This document shows positions 34,395 through 44,526 of a DNA stretch of 64,000 nucleotides, piece by piece (positions within the stretch are counted from its first letter, which is position 1; every line of letters begins with the position of its first letter). Source of the DNA: Escherichia coli. Its GTDB lineage: Bacteria > Pseudomonadota > Gammaproteobacteria > Enterobacterales > Enterobacteriaceae. The notes under the pieces were generated by a model that made no database searches, was not told the origin of the DNA, and worked only from the letters and a program-made list of their open reading frames with translations. Position numbers and translations under genes: made by a program. The DNA lies in assembly GCF_003334405.1 (NCBI RefSeq), contig NZ_QOWM01000004.1. One strand, 5' to 3'.

Positions 34395-36047
34395 TTACGC
34401 GCTCAACAGTTGCTTCATGTCTTCTTCAACAGTGGTGATAGAACGCAGGCCGAATTTCTCGTTCAGCACCGCCAGCAGGTCTGGTGTCAGGAAACCAGGT
34501 GCAGTCGGGCCGGTGACGATATTTTTCACGCCCAGAGAAAGCAGCGTCAGCAGAATGACGATCGCTTTCTGTTCAAACCAGGAGAGCACCAGCGACAGCG
34601 GCAGATCGTTGACACCGCAGCCCAGTTTCTCTGCCAGAGTGACAGCCAGAATAATCGCTGAGTAAGCATCGTTACATTGACCTGCATCTACCAGACGCGG
34701 CAGACCTTCGATATCGCCAAACTCAAGTTTGTTAAAGCGATATTTACCACAGGCGAGGGTCAGGATCAGGCAGTCATCCGGCACGCTGGTGGCGAAATCG
34801 GTGAAGTAGTGGCGCTCGCCGCGTGCGCCGTCACAGCCACCAAGCAGGAAGATATGACGCAGTTTTTCACGGCTCACCAGATCAATCAGCGTATCAGCAG
34901 CGCCAAGCAGCGTCTGGCGACCAAAACCCACGGTGATAAGGTGCGGAATTTCGCTGTACGGGAAGCCTGCCATCTGTTGCGCCTGGGTGATAACCGCAGA
35001 GAAATCATCACCGTCCAGATGACGCACGCCAGGCCAGCCAACAATGCTGCGGGTCCAGATACGATCGTCATAAGCGCCTACGGTTGGGTCGATGATGCAG
35101 TTCGAGGTCATCACGATGGGGCCAGGGAAACGAGCGAACTCCACTTGCTGATTCTGCCAGCCGCTGCCGTAGTTACCGACCAGATGCTTGAATTTACGCA
35201 GCTCCGGGTAGCCATGCGCAGGCAGCATTTCGCCGTGGGTGTAGACATTAACGCCCGTGCCTTCGGTCTGTTCCAGCAGGTTGTAGAGATCTTTGAGATC
35301 GTGACCGGAAATCAGAATGCATTTACCCGCCGTCGCTTTGACGTTGACCTGGGTTGGCGTCGGGTGACCGTATTTACCGGTTTCGCCTGCATCCAGAATG
35401 CTCATCACTTTGAAGTTCATCTGGCCGATTTCCATTGAACACTCAAGAAGCGCGTTCATATCGGCAGGCCAGGTCCCCAGCCACGCCATGATTTTATGGT
35501 ACTGGGCATAAATATCGTTGTCGTATTGACCGAGAACATGCGCGTGTTCCATATAGGCCGCCGCACCTTTCAGGCCATACAGGCACAGCAGACGCAGGCC
35601 GAGAATGTTTTCGCCAATCGCCGCTTTATCTTTGTTAGGGGTAAATTCTGCTGCCTGACGTTGCAGCTCGCCGAGATCGTCGCTCACCAGTTGCAGGTCA
35701 GCCATCGGGTTATCGACGCGCGCGTTGGCATCTACAGCCAGGCATTGCGCTTTCAGCGCCTCGCGCAGGGCAATCGCTTCACGAGCGTAGCCGACAATAC
35801 GCGGAGAATCGAAGTTAACGTTGGTCAGGGTTGAGAAAAAGGCACGTGGCGCGAAGCTGTCAACATCGTGGTTGATGATGCCGTATTCACGCGCTTTTAC
35901 CGCCCAGGCAGAAAGCCCTTGCAGCGCCGCGATGAGTAAATCCTGAAGGTCAGAAGTTTCCGCCGTTTTACCACACATCCCCTGCGCGTATGAGCAGCCG
36001 TTTCCTGCCGGAGTACGGATAGTTTGTTCACATTGCACACAAAACAT
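34395..36047 (-). CDS. hcp: Hybrid-cluster protein Hcp (550 aa)
   Basis: Track ORF 34395..36053 trimmed to MFCVQCEQT...; N-terminal Cys motif. Confidence 0.92.
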
Positions 36048-36190
36048 GATCACACCTTTTAAAGTTATATTTAATATACATGTTTAAGGTTAAGACGCTT
36101 AACGCGGGGATAAAAGGGATTTTTCATGCAACTTTAAGGGAGATTGATTTAGCGCAATTTTGGCGGCAGGGATCTACCGCCAGAGAGGTA

Positions 36191-37090
36191 TTACGCAGAG
36201 AAAAAGGCGATGAGGATCGGCACTAACAGGCTAAGAATAAAACCGTGAACAATTGCCGCCGGGACCATATCCAGCCCGCCAGTACGTTGAAGAACGGGCA
36301 GGGTGAAATCCATTGATGTGGCACCGCATAAGCCCAGTGCAGTAGAGCGGCTGCGGCGAATCAGCCCAGGGATCAACATAATAGCAATCAGTTCACGGGC
36401 CAGATCATTAAAAAACGCCGCGCTCCCGATTACCGGACCAAAAGATTCGGTCAATAAAATACCGGAAAGAGAATACCAGCCGAAACCGGAGGCCATTGCC
36501 AGCGCGGTATTGATGGGGAGATCAAGAATAAAGGCGTTAATTAAACCACCAATTAATGAACTGACAACCACCACCACGGCGACAATCATTCCCCGGCGAT
36601 TAAGGACAATCTGCTTTAAGGTCATGCCATTATTGCGCAACTGAATACCAACGAGGAAAAGTAGCAAAATTAACGTGTATTCACTGGCTTCGGTCGCGTG
36701 TTGTAAGAAAGCCAGTCCACTTAGACCAATGGCAAAACCAATCACTACTACGCCGCACAGTTTTAGCGACTCCAGCGCCATCGCAATACGCGACGGGAGT
36801 TTTTCTTGCTGATGGTGGTTGCGCCACGGCAGGCCTCGCTCCAGCCACATCAGGGCGGCAATATTACACAGTAAAATAACGGTAATACTGACGGCAGAAT
36901 AATGCAGAATCGCCAACAGGTTACTGGCGAGGTTATCGAGAAACGCCAGACTGATACCCATAAAAAAGAGAATAAGGTAAACCATCCAGCTTAATAGCTG
37001 ATTAATAACTTTTAACGCAGCTTGTTGGCGAAGCGGAATGAGGTAACCCACAATCAGGGGAACCAGAATGATTAACAGCCCAGAAAACAT
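36191..37090 (-). CDS. lysO: Lysine exporter LysO/YbjE (299 aa)
   Basis: Track ORF 36191..37138 trimmed to MFSGLLIILVPLIVGYLIPL...; polytopic membrane protein. Confidence 0.85.
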   Translation of the reverse strand: MFSGLLIILVPLIVGYLIPLRQQAALKVINQLLSWMVYLILFFMGISLAFLDNLASNLLAILHYSAVSITVILLCNIAALMWLERGLPWRNHHQQEKLPSRIAMALESLKLCGVVVIGFAIGLSGLAFLQHATEASEYTLILLLFLVGIQLRNNGMTLKQIVLNRRGMIVAVVVVVSSLIGGLINAFILDLPINTALAMASGFGWYSLSGILLTESFGPVIGSAAFFNDLARELIAIMLIPGLIRRSRSTALGLCGATSMDFTLPVLQRTGGLDMVPAAIVHGFILSLLVPILIAFFSA

Positions 37091-37545
37091 GAAAACCCAG
37101 TCCTTGCAAAGATGAAGTCGAAATGCGCGATGACACACTACTGAAAGCGGAAGGACGAGTAAAGTTGCAATTAAAAGGAAATGTTATGCATAAGGAGCAG
37201 TAGAGTATTCGTTTTCATTTAAAGATATTCTTGCGCTTTAATTACAAACTGCACCGATGTTGGTGGCGTCAAAATCGCCGAGGCGTTCCCTGAAGGCCGG
37301 GGCAGCCCACATGGATGTGGGCTGAGGGCGCGTTTTACAGGGATGTTACCTCGCGCCCGACCCGGTAGCCGTAAGGGATAAGCCGAGGGCACCGCGCAGC
37401 GGCGATTTTGTTCGCCAGAGCCCGGGGGTGCAGGGGGCGGCGGCGATTGGCCGCCCCCTGCGCGCTCCTTGCGCCAGTGGCAATATGTTGCTTAGCTCAT
37501 GAAAGGAGCGCAACAAGATGATGAATCAACATATAACAACATCTT

Positions 37546-37574
37546 AAAAAAAGGCCTGACATTACGCCAGGCCT
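37546..37574 (-). terminator. Rho-independent terminator of aqpZ
   Basis: Minus strand: hairpin aggcctg...caggcct followed by ttttttt. Confidence 0.6.
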
Positions 37575-37584
37575 TCTGCGTTAA

Positions 37585-38280
37585 TTAATCACGCTTTTCC
37601 AGCAGGGTCCGGTAAATCAGACCACCGATAATGCCGCCGACAATTGGCACCACCCAGAAGAACCACAGTTGTTCTAATGCCCAGCCGCCCTGGAAGATAG
37701 CAACCGCGGTGCTGCGCGCCGGGTTAACAGAAGTGTTAGTCACCGGAATACTAATTAAGTGAATCAGGGTTAAGGCCAGACCAATAGCGATCGGCGCAAA
37801 ACCTGCCGGCGCGAATTTGTCGGTTGCGCCGTGGATCACCAACAGGAAACCTGCACTCAATACCAGTTCAACTACCAGCGCGGAAAGCATGGAATAACCG
37901 CCTGGTGAATGCTCGCCATAACCGTTAGAAGCAAAACCGCTGGCTGCCGCGTCAAAACCCGTTTTACCACTGGCAATTAAATACAGCAGCGCCGCTGCAA
38001 CAATACCGCCGACAACCTGGGCAATTACGTAGCCAACGACTTCTTTTGCCGGAAAACGTCCGCCAGCCCATAAACCAATAGTGACCGCCGGGTTAAAATG
38101 ACCACCAGAAATATGACCAACAGCAAAGGCCATCGTCAGAACGGTCAGACCGAACGCCAACGCCACGCCGGCAAAACCAATGCCTAATTCCGGGAAGCCT
38201 GCGGCCAGTACAGCACTACCACAGCCACCAAAAACAAGCCAGAAAGTACCAAAACATTCAGCTGCTAATTTTCTGAACAT
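37585..38280 (-). CDS. aqpZ: Aquaporin Z (231 aa)
   Basis: Track ORF 37585..38286 trimmed to [15 protein letters not shown]...; two NPA motifs. Confidence 0.93.
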
Positions 38281-38705
38281 ATCCACCTCAATTAAAAATT
38301 GACCCTGTGAAAAATATGGTCGTTTTATAGGGTCGTCGTAAAAAAGTGACGACGGAAATAATGCGCGGCTATTTTAAAAACGAAGGCGAGTCATTCACCA
38401 GATAAATAAATCCAGTAAATTTGATTTAGGGCAACAGCGGGTTGCCCCATATAGTCATTTGTCTGATTGACAGTGTAGTGCACGCAAAAGATTTAATCCT
38501 TTAGGCGTAATAAAAAATAATTTATCATGCTAATTATTTGATTTTGTTGTTTTTGCAGACTTATCAGCAAGAGGGAGTATAACGCGATTATTCGCTCATT
38601 TTTCAGACATTTGCCATGCTTAAATGTGATGTCATCACGTATTAGCAAGGCCTTTCCCGTTATACTGCCAGCGTAAAGGATAAGTCACATATTTCTGGAG
38701 GGGAT

Positions 38706-40364
38706 ATGATTCTTGAGCGCGTTGAAATTGTGGGTTTTCGCGGTATCAACCGTTTGTCGTTGATGCTGGAACAAAACAACGTCCTGATTGGGGAGAACGC
38801 GTGGGGTAAATCCAGCTTGCTGGACGCCTTAACTCTGCTGCTATCGCCAGAATCAGATCTCTACCATTTTGAGCGCGACGATTTCTGGTTCCCGCCGGGA
38901 GATATCAACGGGCGAGAACATCATCTGCATATTATTTTGACCTTCCGCGAATCGCTGCCAGGCCGACATCGGGTTCGCCGTTATCGGCCGCTGGAAGCGT
39001 GCTGGACGCCATGCACCGATGGCTATCACCGTATTTTTTATCGTCTGGAAGGGGAGAGTGCGGAAGACGGCAGCGTGATGACACTGCGCAGTTTTCTCGA
39101 TAAAGACGGACATCCGATTGATGTCGAGGATATTAACGATCAGGCACGCCATCTGGTGCGTTTAATGCCGGTGCTGCGCTTGCGTGATGCCCGTTTTATG
39201 CGCCGTATTCGTAACGGCACGGTGCCAAATGTCCCTAATGTGGAAGTCACCGCGCGCCAGCTCGATTTCCTCGCCCGTGAGTTATCCTCACATCCGCAAA
39301 ATCTCTCTGATGGGCAGATTCGTCAGGGACTTTCCGCAATGGTACAGCTGCTTGAGCATTATTTCTCTGAGCAGGGGGCCGGACAGGCGCGATATCGTTT
39401 AATGCGGCGGCGAGCCAGCAATGAGCAACGAAGCTGGCGCTATCTGGATATCATCAACCGGATGATTGACCGACCTGGTGGGCGCTCGTATCGGGTTATT
39501 TTGCTCGGCCTATTTGCTACTTTGTTGCAGGCAAAAGGCACATTGCGACTGGATAAAGACGCCCGTCCATTGTTGCTGATCGAAGATCCAGAAACCCGTT
39601 TACACCCCATTATGCTTTCAGTTGCCTGGCATCTGTTGAATCTTCTGCCATTGCAGCGCATTGCCACCACCAACTCGGGTGAGTTGCTTTCGTTAACGCC
39701 GGTAGAGCATGTTTGCCGACTGGTACGTGAGTCCTCGCGCGTTGCCGCCTGGCGTCTGGGGCCGAGTGGCTTGAGTACCGAAGATAGCCGACGCATATCC
39801 TTTCACATTCGTTTTAACCGTCCGTCATCGCTGTTTGCACGCTGCTGGTTGCTGGTGGAAGGGGAAACGGAAACCTGGGTTATCAATGAACTGGCGCGTC
39901 AGTGCGGACATCATTTTGATGCCGAAGGGATCAAGGTCATTGAGTTTGCCCAGTCCGGGCTAAAGCCACTGGTTAAATTTGCCCGCCGAATGGGGATTGA
40001 ATGGCATGTACTGGTCGATGGCGATGAAGCAGGGAAGAAATATGCCGCTACGGTACGCAGCCTGTTGAATAACGATCGGGAAGCCGAACGAGAACATTTA
40101 ACGGCGTTACCGGCGCTGGATATGGAACATTTTATGTATCGCCAGGGATTTTCCGATGTGTTCCACCGCATGGCGCAAATCCCGGAAAATGTACCGATGA
40201 ATCTACGCAAAATTATCTCGAAAGCGATCCATCGCTCTTCCAAACCCGATCTTGCCATTGAAGTGGCAATGGAGGCAGGACGTCGTGGTGTGGACTCCGT
40301 ACCGACGCTGCTGAAAAAAATGTTCTCACGCGTGCTGTGGCTGGCGCGCGGTCGCGCGGATTAA
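38706..40364 (+). CDS. ybjD: OLD-family ATP-dependent endonuclease YbjD (ATPase plus Toprim, 552 aa)
   Basis: Track ORF; Walker A GENAWGKSS, Walker-B-like LLLIEDPE, C-terminal Toprim-like motifs LVEGETE and LVDGDEAGKKY. Confidence 0.88.
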   Translation: MILERVEIVGFRGINRLSLMLEQNNVLIGENAWGKSSLLDALTLLLSPESDLYHFERDDFWFPPGDINGREHHLHIILTFRESLPGRHRVRRYRPLEACWTPCTDGYHRIFYRLEGESAEDGSVMTLRSFLDKDGHPIDVEDINDQARHLVRLMPVLRLRDARFMRRIRNGTVPNVPNVEVTARQLDFLARELSSHPQNLSDGQIRQGLSAMVQLLEHYFSEQGAGQARYRLMRRRASNEQRSWRYLDIINRMIDRPGGRSYRVILLGLFATLLQAKGTLRLDKDARPLLLIEDPETRLHPIMLSVAWHLLNLLPLQRIATTNSGELLSLTPVEHVCRLVRESSRVAAWRLGPSGLSTEDSRRISFHIRFNRPSSLFARCWLLVEGETETWVINELARQCGHHFDAEGIKVIEFAQSGLKPLVKFARRMGIEWHVLVDGDEAGKKYAATVRSLLNNDREAEREHLTALPALDMEHFMYRQGFSDVFHRMAQIPENVPMNLRKIISKAIHRSSKPDLAIEVAMEAGRRGVDSVPTLLKKMFSRVLWLARGRAD

Positions 40365-41353
40365 CCGCGAAACATCGTGGCCATTTGTGGCTGAATAGCG
40401 TCGAGCATCTCATAGCGCCGACGGTATTCAGCCCGTTTTTTACTGGCGATTTCGGCAATCTCTTTTCGTGCTATCTGTGCTGGAAGGCGGTAATGGCGTT
40501 CAGCATCACATACGCCGCCAACCGATTCCCAGAAAGCGTTGTAATCAGCGTGGATCTTGCCTTCTTTATCGCGATAACGCAGGCTGCGGTAAATATGCGT
40601 TTCATTGCTGACGGCAATAATCTGCTCTACCTGCAAACGTTGGGCAAACAGACAGGCCGCTTCCATCACGAGGCGTTTGGGAAATAGCCCGTGGCAGGCT
40701 TTCGTCGCATTCTGGATTTCCTGATGTGGAATTTCCCATTTTGCGCCTTGCAGTCCGCCAATAAACATCGTTCTTTTCCCCTGATATTCACACAGGGTAA
40801 ACGTGATCTCTGCCAGAGGAATACCTTCGCTGTTGCGGAACAGGATTGTGCTGTCACCTTCTTTATCCATTGAGATCATCATGGTCAGCTCAAGCGTGAA
40901 CTGCTCGCCGTTTTTGCCTTCCAGCTTCGCCAGTTGCAGCCCGGGGGTATTCAAATATAAGCTGAATTCTTCCGCCGACATACATTCGCGGAGTAACGCA
41001 TAATGGTAACGTAACGCCTCCAGCAATTGCTTACGGCTAAGATTCGCCGCAAGGTAAGGGCGATGCAGACGCACAGGCAGTCGCGGCTGGCGCGTTAACA
41101 ATACATTGAGATTAGGCCAGTGGGAAAGTTCGTTCATCCACTCAACGCTTAAACGCGGCATAATCAACGAGCGCAGCAAAAATTTCTGGCGAAAACTACG
41201 GCGATGCCAGAATTTACCCGGCCGACACTGTCCACGTGCCAGACTAAGAAAAAGTGACAGGCTGCTGAGAGATTCAGATGGCGTAAAGGTCCGTTCAGTT
41301 AGCTGCGACATATTCATGAAATCAATGGTTATACATGGCGTCGATTTCACCAT
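40361..41353 (-). CDS. ybjX: VirK-like protein YbjX (DUF535, 330 aa)
   Basis: Track ORF; converges on ybjD with a 4-nt overlap; synteny next to macAB. Confidence 0.85.
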   Translation of the reverse strand: MVKSTPCITIDFMNMSQLTERTFTPSESLSSLSLFLSLARGQCRPGKFWHRRSFRQKFLLRSLIMPRLSVEWMNELSHWPNLNVLLTRQPRLPVRLHRPYLAANLSRKQLLEALRYHYALLRECMSAEEFSLYLNTPGLQLAKLEGKNGEQFTLELTMMISMDKEGDSTILFRNSEGIPLAEITFTLCEYQGKRTMFIGGLQGAKWEIPHQEIQNATKACHGLFPKRLVMEAACLFAQRLQVEQIIAVSNETHIYRSLRYRDKEGKIHADYNAFWESVGGVCDAERHYRLPAQIARKEIAEIASKKRAEYRRRYEMLDAIQPQMATMFRG

Positions 41354-41467
41354 TGCGTATCTTAACCAAACATCAATAGTGTGATTACTAACGTAAATTT
41401 TAGGGTTTTGTTGATATTTCGTTGAAGTTAATGACCCGGATTGGCATATGGAGTATTCAGAAAATTT

Positions 41468-42583
41468 ATGAAAAAGCGGAAAACCGTGAAGAAGCGTTAC
41501 GTTATTGCGCTGGTGATAGTCATCGCCGGACTGATTACGTTATGGAGAATTCTTAACGCACCCGTGCCGACTTATCAGACGCTGATTGTGCGCCCCGGTG
41601 ATTTACAGCAAAGCGTGCTGGCGACCGGAAAGCTGGACGCGCTGCGTAAGGTTGATGTGGGCGCGCAGGTCAGCGGTCAGTTGAAAACTCTGTCGGTGGC
41701 GATTGGCGATAAAGTAAAAAAAGACCAGCTTTTAGGGGTTATTGATCCTGAACAGGCTGAAAACCAGATTAAGGAGGTCGAAGCAACGCTGATGGAGCTA
41801 CGTGCGCAGCGGCAGCAGGCGGAAGCGGAGCTGAAACTGGCGCGGGTGACGTATTCCCGTCAGCAACGTCTGGCACAAACGAAGGCTGTTTCACAGCAGG
41901 ATCTCGACACCGCCGCGACGGAGATGGCTGTGAAACAGGCGCAAATTGGCACCATTGACGCGCAAATCAAGCGCAATCAGGCTTCTCTCGATACGGCTAA
42001 AACCAATCTCGATTACACTCGCATCGTTGCCCCGATGGCCGGGGAAGTCACGCAAATCACCACTCTGCAAGGCCAGACGGTGATTGCCGCACAACAAGCA
42101 CCGAACATTCTGACGCTGGCAGATATGAGCACCATGCTGGTAAAAGCGCAGGTTTCTGAAGCGGATGTAATCCACCTGAAGCCGGGGCAAAAAGCCTGGT
42201 TTACGGTGCTTGGCGATCCACTGACGCGCTACGAGGGGCAAATCAAGGATGTACTACCGACGCCGGAAAAGGTTAACGACGCTATTTTCTATTACGCCCG
42301 TTTTGAAGTCCCCAACCCCAATGGTTTGCTGCGGCTGGATATGACTGCGCAAGTGCATATTCAGCTCACCGATGTGAAAAATGTGCTGACGATCCCTCTG
42401 TCGGCGTTAGGCGATCCGGTTGGCGATAATCGTTATAAAGTCAAATTGTTGCGTAATGGTGAAACACGCGAGCGTGAAGTGACGATTGGCGCACGTAACG
42501 ATACCGATGTTGAGATTGTCAAAGGGCTTGAAGCGGGCGATGAAGTGGTGATTGGTGAGGCCAAACCAGGAGCTGCACAATGA
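41468..42583 (+). CDS. macA: Macrolide efflux membrane-fusion protein MacA (371 aa)
   Basis: Track ORF 41441..42583 trimmed to [18 protein letters not shown]...; coiled-coil periplasmic adaptor. Confidence 0.9.
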
Positions 42584-44526
42584 CGCCTTTGCTCGAATTA
42601 AAGGATATTCGTCGCAGCTATCCTGCCGGTGATGAGCAGGTTGAGGTGCTGAAGGGCATCAGCCTCGATATTTATGCGGGTGAGATGGTCGCGATTGTTG
42701 GCGCTTCGGGTTCCGGTAAATCGACCCTGATGAATATTCTCGGCTGTCTGGATAAGGCCACCAGCGGCACCTATCGCGTCGCCGGTCAGGATGTTGCCAC
42801 GCTGGACGCCGATGCGCTGGCGCAACTGCGCCGCGAGCATTTCGGCTTTATTTTCCAGCGTTACCATTTGCTTTCGCATTTAACCGCCGAGCAGAACGTT
42901 GAAGTACCCGCCGTCTATGCTGGTCTTGAGCGGAAACAGCGACTGCTTCGTGCCCAGGAGTTGCTGCAACGGCTGGGGCTGGAAGACCGTACAGAGTATT
43001 ATCCGGCACAGCTTTCGGGTGGTCAGCAACAGCGCGTCAGCATCGCGCGGGCATTGATGAACGGTGGTCAGGTAATTCTTGCCGATGAACCAACCGGCGC
43101 ACTGGACAGCCATTCTGGCGAAGAGGTGATGGCGATCCTGCATCAGCTGCGCGATCGTGGGCATACGGTGATTATCGTCACCCACGATCCGCAGGTCGCT
43201 GCTCAGGCCGAGCGGGTGATCGAAATTCGCGACGGCGAAATTGTGCGCAATCCTCCCGCCATTGAAAAAGTGAATGTTACTGGCGGGACGGAACCTGTTG
43301 TCAACACGGTGTCTGGCTGGCGGCAGTTTGTCAGCGGTTTTAACGAGGCGCTGACGATGGCATGGCGGGCGCTGGCAGCGAATAAAATGCGTACTTTACT
43401 GACCATGCTGGGGATTATTATCGGTATTGCGTCGGTGGTTTCCATTGTCGTGGTGGGTGACGCCGCCAAACAAATGGTGCTGGCGGATATTCGTTCTATT
43501 GGTACGAATACTATTGATGTCTATCCCGGGAAAGATTTTGGCGATGACGATCCGCAATATCAGCAGGCGCTGAAGTACGACGACTTAATCGCCATCCAAA
43601 AACAACCGTGGGTCGCCTCAGCCACACCTGCCGTCTCGCAAAACCTGCGCCTGCGTTATAACAATGTTGATGTTGCTGCCAGTGCCAATGGCGTGAGCGG
43701 CGATTATTTTAATGTCTATGGCATGACCTTCAGTGAAGGAAACACCTTTAATCAGGAGCAGCTGAACGGTCGTGCGCAGGTCGTGGTTCTCGACAGTAAT
43801 ACTCGCCGCCAGCTTTTCCCCCATAAAGCAGATGTGGTTGGCGAGGTGATTCTGGTCGGCAATATGCCCGCCAGAGTCATTGGTGTGGCGGAAGAAAAAC
43901 AGTCGATGTTTGGTAGCAGTAAAGTGCTGCGTGTCTGGCTACCTTACAGCACGATGTCCGGGCGAGTTATGGGCCAGTCGTGGCTTAACTCCATTACTGT
44001 CAGGGTGAAAGAAGGATTTGACAGCGCCGAGGCGGAACAGCAACTCACGCGTTTACTTTCACTGCGCCACGGAAAGAAGGATTTCTTTACCTGGAACATG
44101 GACGGCGTCTTGAAAACTGTTGAAAAGACCACACGTACTTTACAACTGTTTCTGACGCTGGTGGCGGTGATTTCGCTGGTGGTGGGCGGTATTGGTGTAA
44201 TGAATATTATGCTGGTGTCAGTGACCGAGCGGACGCGGGAAATTGGCATTCGCATGGCTGTAGGTGCGCGAGCAAGCGATGTTTTGCAACAGTTCCTGAT
44301 CGAAGCCGTACTGGTTTGCCTGGTCGGTGGCGCGTTGGGAATAACACTGTCACTGTTAATTGCTTTCACCTTGCAGCTTTTCTTACCCGGCTGGGAGATT
44401 GGTTTTTCACCGTTGGCGCTGCTGCTGGCGTTTCTCTGCTCGACGGTCACCGGGATTTTATTTGGCTGGTTACCCGCACGAAATGCGGCACGACTGGATC
44501 CAGTAGATGCTCTGGCACGAGAGTAA
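42580..44526 (+). CDS. macB: Macrolide efflux ABC transporter MacB (648 aa)
   Basis: Track ORF; ATGA overlap with macA; Walker [10 protein letters not shown], signature LSGGQQQR, C-terminal FtsX-like permease. Confidence 0.93.

Follow-up and report, generated by a model that had tools for sequence, protein, structure and literature searches.

We analysed a window of 64,000 nucleotides of Escherichia coli DNA (RefSeq assembly GCF_003334405.1, contig NZ_QOWM01000004.1), and in it the gene ybjD, for which Atahualpa et al. propose the name oldB (PMC13261556). The encoded protein is 100% identical to the one that E. coli genomes carry under the annotation ybjD 'ATP-dependent endonuclease'. The initial annotation, made from the sequence alone, had described it as a solitary ATPase/Toprim nuclease of the OLD (overcoming lysogenisation defect) family, and the open reading frame and the four motifs named there were all recovered, each motif as an exact match at its place (Table 1). 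The divergent aqpZ lies upstream, separated from ybjD by an AT-rich spacer of 419 bp, and the convergent ybjX (Pfam DUF535) lies downstream, the two 3' ends overlapping by 4 nt; both genes appear in the open reading frame listing as the initial annotation had placed them. The farther flanks carry hcp and lysO/ybjE on the upstream side and macA and macB on the downstream side.

The family assignment was investigated by profile searches and by structure prediction. In Pfam, DUF2813 covered residues 1-375 of YbjD (E=3.5e-160) and OLD-like_TOPRIM residues 376-440 (E=7.8e-16), and P-loop-level matches were obtained with AAA_15, AAA_29, AAA_21, AAA_23, SMC_N and ABC_tran. The architecture proposed at the outset, an ABC-type ATPase head (AAA_15, AAA_21, AAA_23, SMC_N) with a Toprim region of OLD type, was in this way retrieved by hidden Markov models. 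Among the PADLOC defence models the highest score was that of a GajA model (PDLC00094, 267 bits, E=6.8e-80), other GajA models gave 80-138 bits with many weaker ones, and the Old model gave 84 bits. No NCBIfam family scored above its curated cut-off, the matches there being of P-loop level only (MADS3, RecF, PtuA, Eco8). Against the sequences of the PDB, the single YbjD sequence showed a weak match to GajA (E~1e-4), while a profile of nine orthologs reached GajA with E=1.9e-15 and the OLD protein of Thermus scotoductus (6P74) with E=3.3e-12.

The AlphaFold2 model of YbjD, built from a 68-sequence alignment, has a mean predicted local distance difference test (pLDDT) of 85.7 and a predicted template modelling score (pTM) of 0.83. 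When this model was compared with the PDB by Foldseek, the top matches were GajA (E=7e-19), Thermus OLD (4e-17) and the OLD protein of retron-Eco8 (5e-14), with PtuA and SMC heads at lower ranks. The predicted overall fold is thus like that of the solved OLD proteins, as the initial annotation had expected of a structure prediction. The likeness to the SMC, Rad50, RecF and RecN ABC ATPases and to the Toprim proteins RNase M5 and DnaG is of fold level only, and these are separate proteins of separate pathways. Together, the profile and structural data make it very probable that ybjD encodes a genuine OLD-family ATPase/Toprim protein with the general enzymology of that family. The OLD identity of ybjD is already published: Schiltz et al. 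in 2019 searched with E. coli YbjD (b0876) and collected 833 OLD homologs, YbjD being the seed of the Class 1/Class 2 scheme, and placed E. coli among the Class 1 members (PMC6755086).

The conservation of individual residues was read from the 68-sequence alignment of relatives, whose identity to YbjD goes down to 28%. The residues G29, E30, R362, H367, R379, W381, E385, G386, E387, E389, W391, F414, G418, W433, D440, G443, D472, E474, G481, K513 and P514 are invariant. Five further residues, K35, E293, E296, H300 and D438, are conserved in at least 90% of the relatives. The spacing from E293 to H300 (+7) equals that of E276/H283 in Thermus OLD, and N323 of the TTNS stretch may be the equivalent of the H-loop, by analogy with the Class 1 homologs in which an Asn replacing the H-loop His has been described (PMC7049728). 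E385 and E389 are aligned with E400 and E404 of the Burkholderia pseudomallei OLD protein, and E385 is aligned with E379 of GajA. By comparison with T506, E508 and K562 of Burkholderia OLD, the residues D472, E474 and K513 of the helical domain are putative metal-B ligands and a putative catalytic Lys. As far as the alignments tell, the residues required for a two-metal Toprim nuclease and for an ABC-type ATPase appear to be all kept in YbjD.

The invariant columns across 9 orthologs, from E. coli to Vibrio, were then counted by region. They make up 46% of the Toprim core (here residues 376-480), 45% of the Walker A lobe, 28% of the ATPase C-lobe and 12% of the C-terminal helices, and residues 61-265, with the insertion, are the least conserved part of the protein (9%). 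The Toprim core is therefore the most conserved part of YbjD, level with the Walker A lobe. The insertion in the ATPase head is modelled as four helices (177-195, 202-228, 237-255 and 260-277), with low confidence for the loops at 164-175 and 224-237; it is presumed to be a dimerisation domain, since its position matches that of the corresponding domain in Thermus OLD and GajA (PMC7049728, PMC10568477).

Table 1. Features of the ybjD locus, in positions of the 64,000-nucleotide window.
Feature	Position (nt)	Strand	Residues	Remarks
aqpZ	37585-38286	-		divergent from ybjD
GC-rich hairpin	38424-38452			in the aqpZ-ybjD spacer
Imperfect inverted repeat	38613-38651			upstream of ybjD
Putative -10 box TATACT of ybjD	38661..38666	+		weak -35; from the upstream alignment
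Shine-Dalgarno GGAGGG	38697..38702	+		4 nt before the ATG; GGAGG kept across the upstream alignment
ybjD (proposed name oldB), coding sequence	38706..40364	+	552 aa + stop	ATG start; open reading frame listing, Pfam DUF2813 and OLD-like_TOPRIM
ABC-ATPase N-lobe	38706..38885	+	1-60	includes Walker A K35; AAA_15, AAA_29, AAA_23 and SMC_N on residues 1-50
Walker A GENAWGKSS	38790-38816	+	29-37	exact
Helical insertion in the ATPase head	39189..39536	+	~162-277	presumed dimerisation domain
ATPase C-lobe motifs	39570..39683	+		Walker B LLLIEDPE (E293, E296), D-loop-like H300, H-loop-like TTNS 321-324
Walker-B LLLIEDPE	39570-39593	+	289-296	exact
Toprim core	39831..40115	+	376-470	catalytic E385, E389 and DxD D438/D440
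LVEGETE	39852-39872	+	383-389	exact
LVDGDEAGKKY	40011-40043	+	436-446	exact
C-terminal helical domain	40119..40361	+	472-552	putative metal-B ligands D472/E474, putative catalytic Lys K513
ybjX	40361-41353	-		convergent with ybjD

The C-terminal part of the protein bears on the class of this OLD protein. After the Toprim strand at 465-467, the model continues with three helices (473-490, 500-527 and 534-547), and the C-terminal region modelled alone reached a pLDDT of 95.0. In the structural comparison this model matched the corresponding regions in Class 2 OLD proteins from Burkholderia and Xanthomonas with a template modelling score normalised to the query (TMq) of 0.72-0.77 and E about 1e-6, and that of Bacillus cereus GajA with a TMq of 0.43-0.60, whereas the Class 1 protein Thermus OLD came at rank 18 with a TMq of 0.39 and E=0.017. 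The C-terminal profile gave scores in the same order (Burkholderia 27.7, Xanthomonas 26.2, Thermus OLD 16.6 bits). Thermus OLD has been described as lacking a C-terminal helical domain (PMC7049728), and this structural trait of Class 1, a Toprim that ends without such a domain, is absent from the YbjD model. The nuclease module of YbjD, as modelled, is of the Class 2 type, with the Toprim plus helical fold of GajA and Burkholderia OLD and not the Class 1 fold of Thermus OLD.

By gene context the picture is that of Class 1. The open reading frames of the window near ybjD include neither a helicase nor a reverse transcriptase nor any other gene of defence type, and aqpZ, lysO and ybjX gave no PADLOC match. 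In all 80 species-level Enterobacteriaceae loci, ybjD occupies one slot between lysO/aqpZ and ybjX/macA with no inserted gene; it is kept in all of them, including the 17 species in which ybjX is missing and the several in which aqpZ is missing, and in Klebsiella macA directly follows ybjD. In Yersinia the gene order is hcr-hcp-lysO-ybjD-ybjX-macAB-cspD-clpSA; the 3' overlap of ybjD and ybjX is not kept there. The Vibrio and Salinivibrio ortholog (~43% identical) is solitary amid unrelated metabolic genes. More distant DUF2813 members, of 30-45% identity, were found in Chitinilyticum, in metagenome-assembled genomes of a Succinivibrionaceae and an Acidobacteria member and in metagenomic contigs; in the 8 contexts examined all are solitary, and their neighbours include ftsZ/lpxC, polA/cysS and genes for ribosomal proteins or transporters.

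A partner helicase (GajB-, UvrD-, PcrA- or Rep-like) or another partner gene was sought within 6-8 kb of the gene in the window, in the 80 Enterobacteriaceae, in Yersinia, Vibrio, Salinivibrio, Klebsiella, Proteus and Aeromonas and in the 8 distant DUF2813 contexts, and none was found across these ~90 loci. Neither were there signs of a Class 3 retron (reverse transcriptase, msr-msd) or of the split ATPase and Toprim genes of Class 4 PARIS: ybjD is a single fused open reading frame with no reverse transcriptase open reading frame nearby, and positions 36000-43000 hold no Rfam element. By the gene-context definition ybjD is a Class 1 OLD gene. The Class 1 call of the initial annotation consequently stands as far as the missing adjacent helicase goes, while the structure of the nuclease module speaks for Class 2. 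The combination of a Class 1 context with a GajA-like structure fits the report that Class 2 is nested in the diversity of Class 1.

Two other assignments were considered and rejected on the same loci. A Gabija assignment fails because GajB is absent at every locus examined, even though a GajA-like protein is present. YbjD, as modelled, has the Toprim plus helical fold type of Class 2, but it is encoded by a core chromosomal gene and not island-borne, and its sequence identity to the Class 2 proteins (Bacillus cereus GajA and the C-terminal regions of Burkholderia and Xanthomonas OLD) is only 13-20%. As a functional partner, ybjX was discarded: it is convergent, absent in 17 of the 80 species including Klebsiella, non-adjacent in Vibrio and Salinivibrio and without a PADLOC match, and it evolves three to five times faster than ybjD. 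Separately, the literature on the island SGI1 uses 'ybjD' for a gene of Gabija type that neighbours uvrD on genomic islands; there the name has been transferred to a different locus.

We then examined how ybjD is distributed and how it evolves. With a threshold of at least 95% nucleotide identity, 5425 of 5426 complete E. coli genomes carried the gene and its upstream region, with a median of one copy and a maximum of two, which bears out the initial placement of ybjD in the core genome. Ortholog identity is 90% in Salmonella and Citrobacter, 86% in Klebsiella, 64% in Yersinia, 56% in Proteus, 45% in Aeromonas and about 40-43% in Vibrio, Salinivibrio and Photobacterium. Orthologs of full length, with an identity of about 40-45%, extend to Vibrionales and Aeromonadales, remoter DUF2813 relatives occur in Beta- and other Proteobacteria, and a scan of one genome per species returned at least 581 genomes with a relative. 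For ybjD, the ratio of nonsynonymous to synonymous substitution rates (dN/dS) was determined by the Nei-Gojobori method with E. albertii, Citrobacter, Klebsiella, Enterobacter and Cedecea as the comparison; it amounts to 0.015-0.07, in the range of the housekeeping neighbours hcp, aqpZ, macA and macB. The downstream gene ybjX, of the DUF535/VirK family, has a dN/dS of 0.07-0.22, far above all its neighbours.

These values also decide on a further reading, according to which ybjD would be an orphaned GajA remnant, left with no current function after the loss of GajB. The best PADLOC match is indeed a GajA model, and a nuclease fold predicted to be of Class 2 occurs here in the absence of GajB. 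Yet the reading frame is intact in 5425 genomes, the dN/dS is that given above, the catalytic residues do not vary among 68 relatives with identities as low as about 30%, and ybjD is expressed in K-12 as measured by quantitative reverse-transcription PCR (RT-qPCR, PMC13261556). Moreover, all the clade members examined are without GajB; being solitary is thus the ancestral state of the clade and not the outcome of a recent loss. We rejected the remnant or pseudogene reading on the dN/dS and the invariant catalytic residues, and consider it very improbable.

A phage or plasmid origin was rejected as well. A tblastn search of 50,697 phage genomes returned no true YbjD homolog, only a 98-aa fragment of host-like DNA, and IMG/VR gave a single match, a 100%-identical E. 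coli fragment, and no true viral homolog. True plasmids carried only OLD proteins at no more than 31% identity, the other 'plasmid' matches being mislabelled chromosomes or chromids. The patchy occurrence, the location on islands or mobile elements and the rapid diversification that are the usual hallmarks of defence genes were all absent from ybjD. In Enterobacterales, ybjD has the profile of a core gene passed on vertically, unlike a mobile, fast-diversifying defence gene. The prevalence of Class 1 OLD given by DefenseFinder is 0.45% of genomes; as YbjD alone is universal in E. coli, we infer that this figure cannot include it.

Several side observations were made during these searches. The PHROG collection contains strong matches to both genes of the convergent pair (phrog_4747 to YbjD, 390 bits; phrog_35383 to YbjX, 505 bits), which are probably host DNA among prophage-derived members. 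In the same way, the 98-aa fragment of the phage search, which is the first 98 codons of ybjD in a 2-kb 'Escherichia phage' record, and the identical fragment in IMG/VR are probably cases of host DNA in prophage or viral-contig calls. A conjugative plasmid of Serratia proteamaculans (NZ_MT039179.1, 6001-9784) carries a captured chromosomal segment, ybjD'-ybjX-macA, beside type IV pilus genes, and its ybjD' is N-terminally truncated or chimeric, the Walker A lobe being replaced. Giant DUF2813 OLD variants of 1000-1900 aa were also encountered (P0175, P0150 with 1867 aa, P0162, P0163, P0165, P0170, P0179, P0180, P0190, P0192 and P0196); one of them, P0175 (L100 5001-9449), has inserts of ~380 aa after the Walker A lobe and of ~470 aa inside the C-terminal helical domain.

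The upstream region of ybjD was aligned over 12 sequences, from 11 Enterobacteriaceae and Yersinia. A block, CCGCTATACTGC, located about 35-40 nt before the ATG, is kept in most of them, including all those that align cleanly. The -10-like box, which lies within this block, and the strong ribosome-binding site seen in the alignment (Table 1) indicate that ybjD is probably an independent transcription unit. No LexA box was found upstream of ybjD, and a consensus promoter scan of the same region gave no match. The inverted repeat of Table 1 has 19 nt with a perfect core, GTGATG-T-CATCAC, and lies ~55-90 nt upstream of the start of ybjD, over the expected -35 region; it is kept in E. albertii and not in the other Enterobacteriaceae genera, and may be an Escherichia-specific operator. 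The GC-rich hairpin, ATTTAGGGCAAC-N5-GTTGCCCCATAT, occupies the middle of the divergent promoter region between aqpZ and ybjD. The aqpZ-ybjD spacer has served as a neutral integration site in engineered strains, and ybjD-ybjX is listed among the convergent 'excludons' from RNA-seq data (PMC12288877). For the uropathogenic E. coli strain UTI89, a cathelicidin-derived peptide is listed as a mild inducer of ybjD (log-scale 1.31), along with arnF, evgS and marR (PMC6737244); this hints that expression is linked to envelope stress or to PhoPQ/EvgAS, or that transcription reads through from ybjX.

The reported phenotypes of ybjD come from the work of Atahualpa et al. in 2026 (PMC13261556), where, besides the RT-qPCR evidence of expression, the gene was assayed against 68 BASEL phages. 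The Keio ybjD deletion left phage susceptibility unchanged. Induced expression from a plasmid, at a low-level, non-toxic inducer concentration, lowered the plaquing of Bas18 and Bas20 and made the plaques of Bas64-68 smaller; overexpression was mildly toxic. The effect was unchanged upon removal of the Toprim domain and lost upon removal of the ATPase domain; the point mutation of three acidic Toprim residues had no effect, and the Walker A mutant K35A kept the phage effect with a higher toxicity. Unlike P2 Old, YbjD leaves recBC(ts) cells alive, and its effect is RecBC-independent (PMC13261556). The statement of the initial annotation that no role was established is thus partly outdated, given the classification of 2019 (PMC6755086) and these overexpression phenotypes. 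The experiments it had proposed are likewise largely in print, with a narrow anti-phage effect of overexpression and no effect of the deletion. As the Toprim core is the most conserved part of YbjD, selection preserves a nuclease of which the published phenotype makes no use.

A reading on which these phenotypes bear directly is that YbjD is a dedicated single-gene anti-phage defence, a functional Class 1 OLD protein like P2 Old or the OLD protein of Vibrio cholerae, that senses and aborts infection. The lowered plaquing and the smaller plaques at non-toxic inducer argue for it, as do the facts that the characterised bacterial OLD proteins are all defence proteins and that the strongest profile matches of YbjD fall in a defence-system library. 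But the effect requires plasmid and inducer, the Keio deletion being unchanged, and only 7 of the 68 phages are affected (PMC13261556). Neither the nuclease domain nor the Walker A lysine is required for the phenotype, unlike in P2 Old and V. cholerae OLD. P2 Old is carried by a prophage, is switched on when RecBCD is inhibited, requires both of its domains and cuts tRNA, whereas the toxicity of YbjD is RecBC-independent and its phage phenotype Toprim-independent. The distribution described above is the opposite of the patchy, island-borne and fast-diversifying one of defence genes: near-universal presence in E. coli (5425/5426), a fixed slot in 80 species, a dN/dS of 0.015-0.07, absence from phages and true plasmids, and neighbours without PADLOC matches. 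The initial suggestion of a single-gene defence candidate accordingly draws some weight from overexpression and loses it on core status, synteny, strong purifying selection and a location off phages and islands; we regard a dedicated defence role as unlikely.

The other reading of the native role is that YbjD is a housekeeping nuclease of genome or RNA maintenance, the counterpart in bacteria of Cran1, a non-defence OLD protein of archaea, and that the anti-phage activity is a by-product of overexpression. Cran1, a Class 5 OLD protein of Sulfolobales, is like YbjD conserved in its lineage and vertically inherited, with intact ATPase and nuclease sites and with no anti-virus defence demonstrated at native level. 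It differs in being essential, in an operon with a membrane-protein gene and in a separate archaeal clade, whereas YbjD is dispensable and solitary. A housekeeping function has to face the observations that ybjD is non-essential, that the literature holds no repair, growth or RNA phenotype for it, that its upstream region lacks a LexA box and that no conserved neighbourhood points to a pathway; nor does conservation alone exclude defence. We hold the housekeeping reading as tentative, with a probability that falls somewhat short of even. What is left beyond these two readings goes to a role as yet unknown, or to both together.

In the mechanism that we propose, YbjD has an ABC/SMC-type ATPase head with a helical (presumed dimerisation) insertion, joined to a Toprim nuclease of putative two-metal type with a helical domain at its end, and would be a homodimer through the helical insertion. 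The ATP-bound head would hold the enzyme in check, an idea with which the greater toxicity of the Walker A K35A mutant can be cited (PMC13261556), and the Toprim site (E385, E389, D438, D440, D472, E474, K513) would cut nucleic acid in a native cellular process. The phage effect of overexpression is probably due to binding or sequestration by the ATPase head and not to the main catalytic function, because it is seen upon overexpression only, calls for no more than the ATPase/dimerisation half and does not depend on RecBC.

Several points weigh against this mechanism. The nuclease and ATPase activities, the substrate and the oligomeric state are all taken over from relatives by analogy, and the only phenotypes reported are anti-phage, which argues for a defence role. 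These phenotypes need neither the Toprim domain nor ATP binding, so that an ATP-regulated nuclease draws no functional support from them in vivo, and the acidic point mutations in the Toprim domain were without effect (PMC13261556). From the Keio deletion, which has no reported phenotype, it follows that a housekeeping role, if there is one, is redundant or conditional.

Extended to the whole clade, the housekeeping reading would make YbjD/DUF2813 a branch of the OLD proteins that is not primarily immune and a bacterial counterpart of Cran1, a GajA-like ATPase-nuclease fixed in the Enterobacterales core genome, its Toprim acting on cellular DNA or RNA, possibly with a housekeeping SF1 helicase (UvrD or Rep) encoded in trans in the place of GajB, and phage restriction being a side effect of head overexpression. 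We put this forward as a speculative proposal, which is rather doubtful in its full extent.

The gene used to count among the uncharacterised 'y-ome' genes of E. coli K-12, and its family is central to Gabija, retron Eco8, PARIS and P2 Old. To what was published, the present analysis adds the evolutionary profile of a core gene, the invariant Toprim site, a nuclease module that is predicted to be of the Class 2 type and the candidate -10 and Shine-Dalgarno elements upstream. The annotation of ybjD is open to confusion from two sources, the match to a GajA model and the use of its name in the SGI1 literature; the score of 267 bits that the solitary YbjD obtains with PDLC00094 is a warning for automated defence-system annotation. 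A core gene whose nuclease site is invariant across hundreds of species stands against a sole published phenotype that is nuclease-free and seen upon overexpression only, and this mismatch implies that the real job of YbjD is yet to be found. If that native job is cellular, bacterial OLD enzymes would not be purely immune, and caution would be called for when defence is assigned from homology and overexpression assays.

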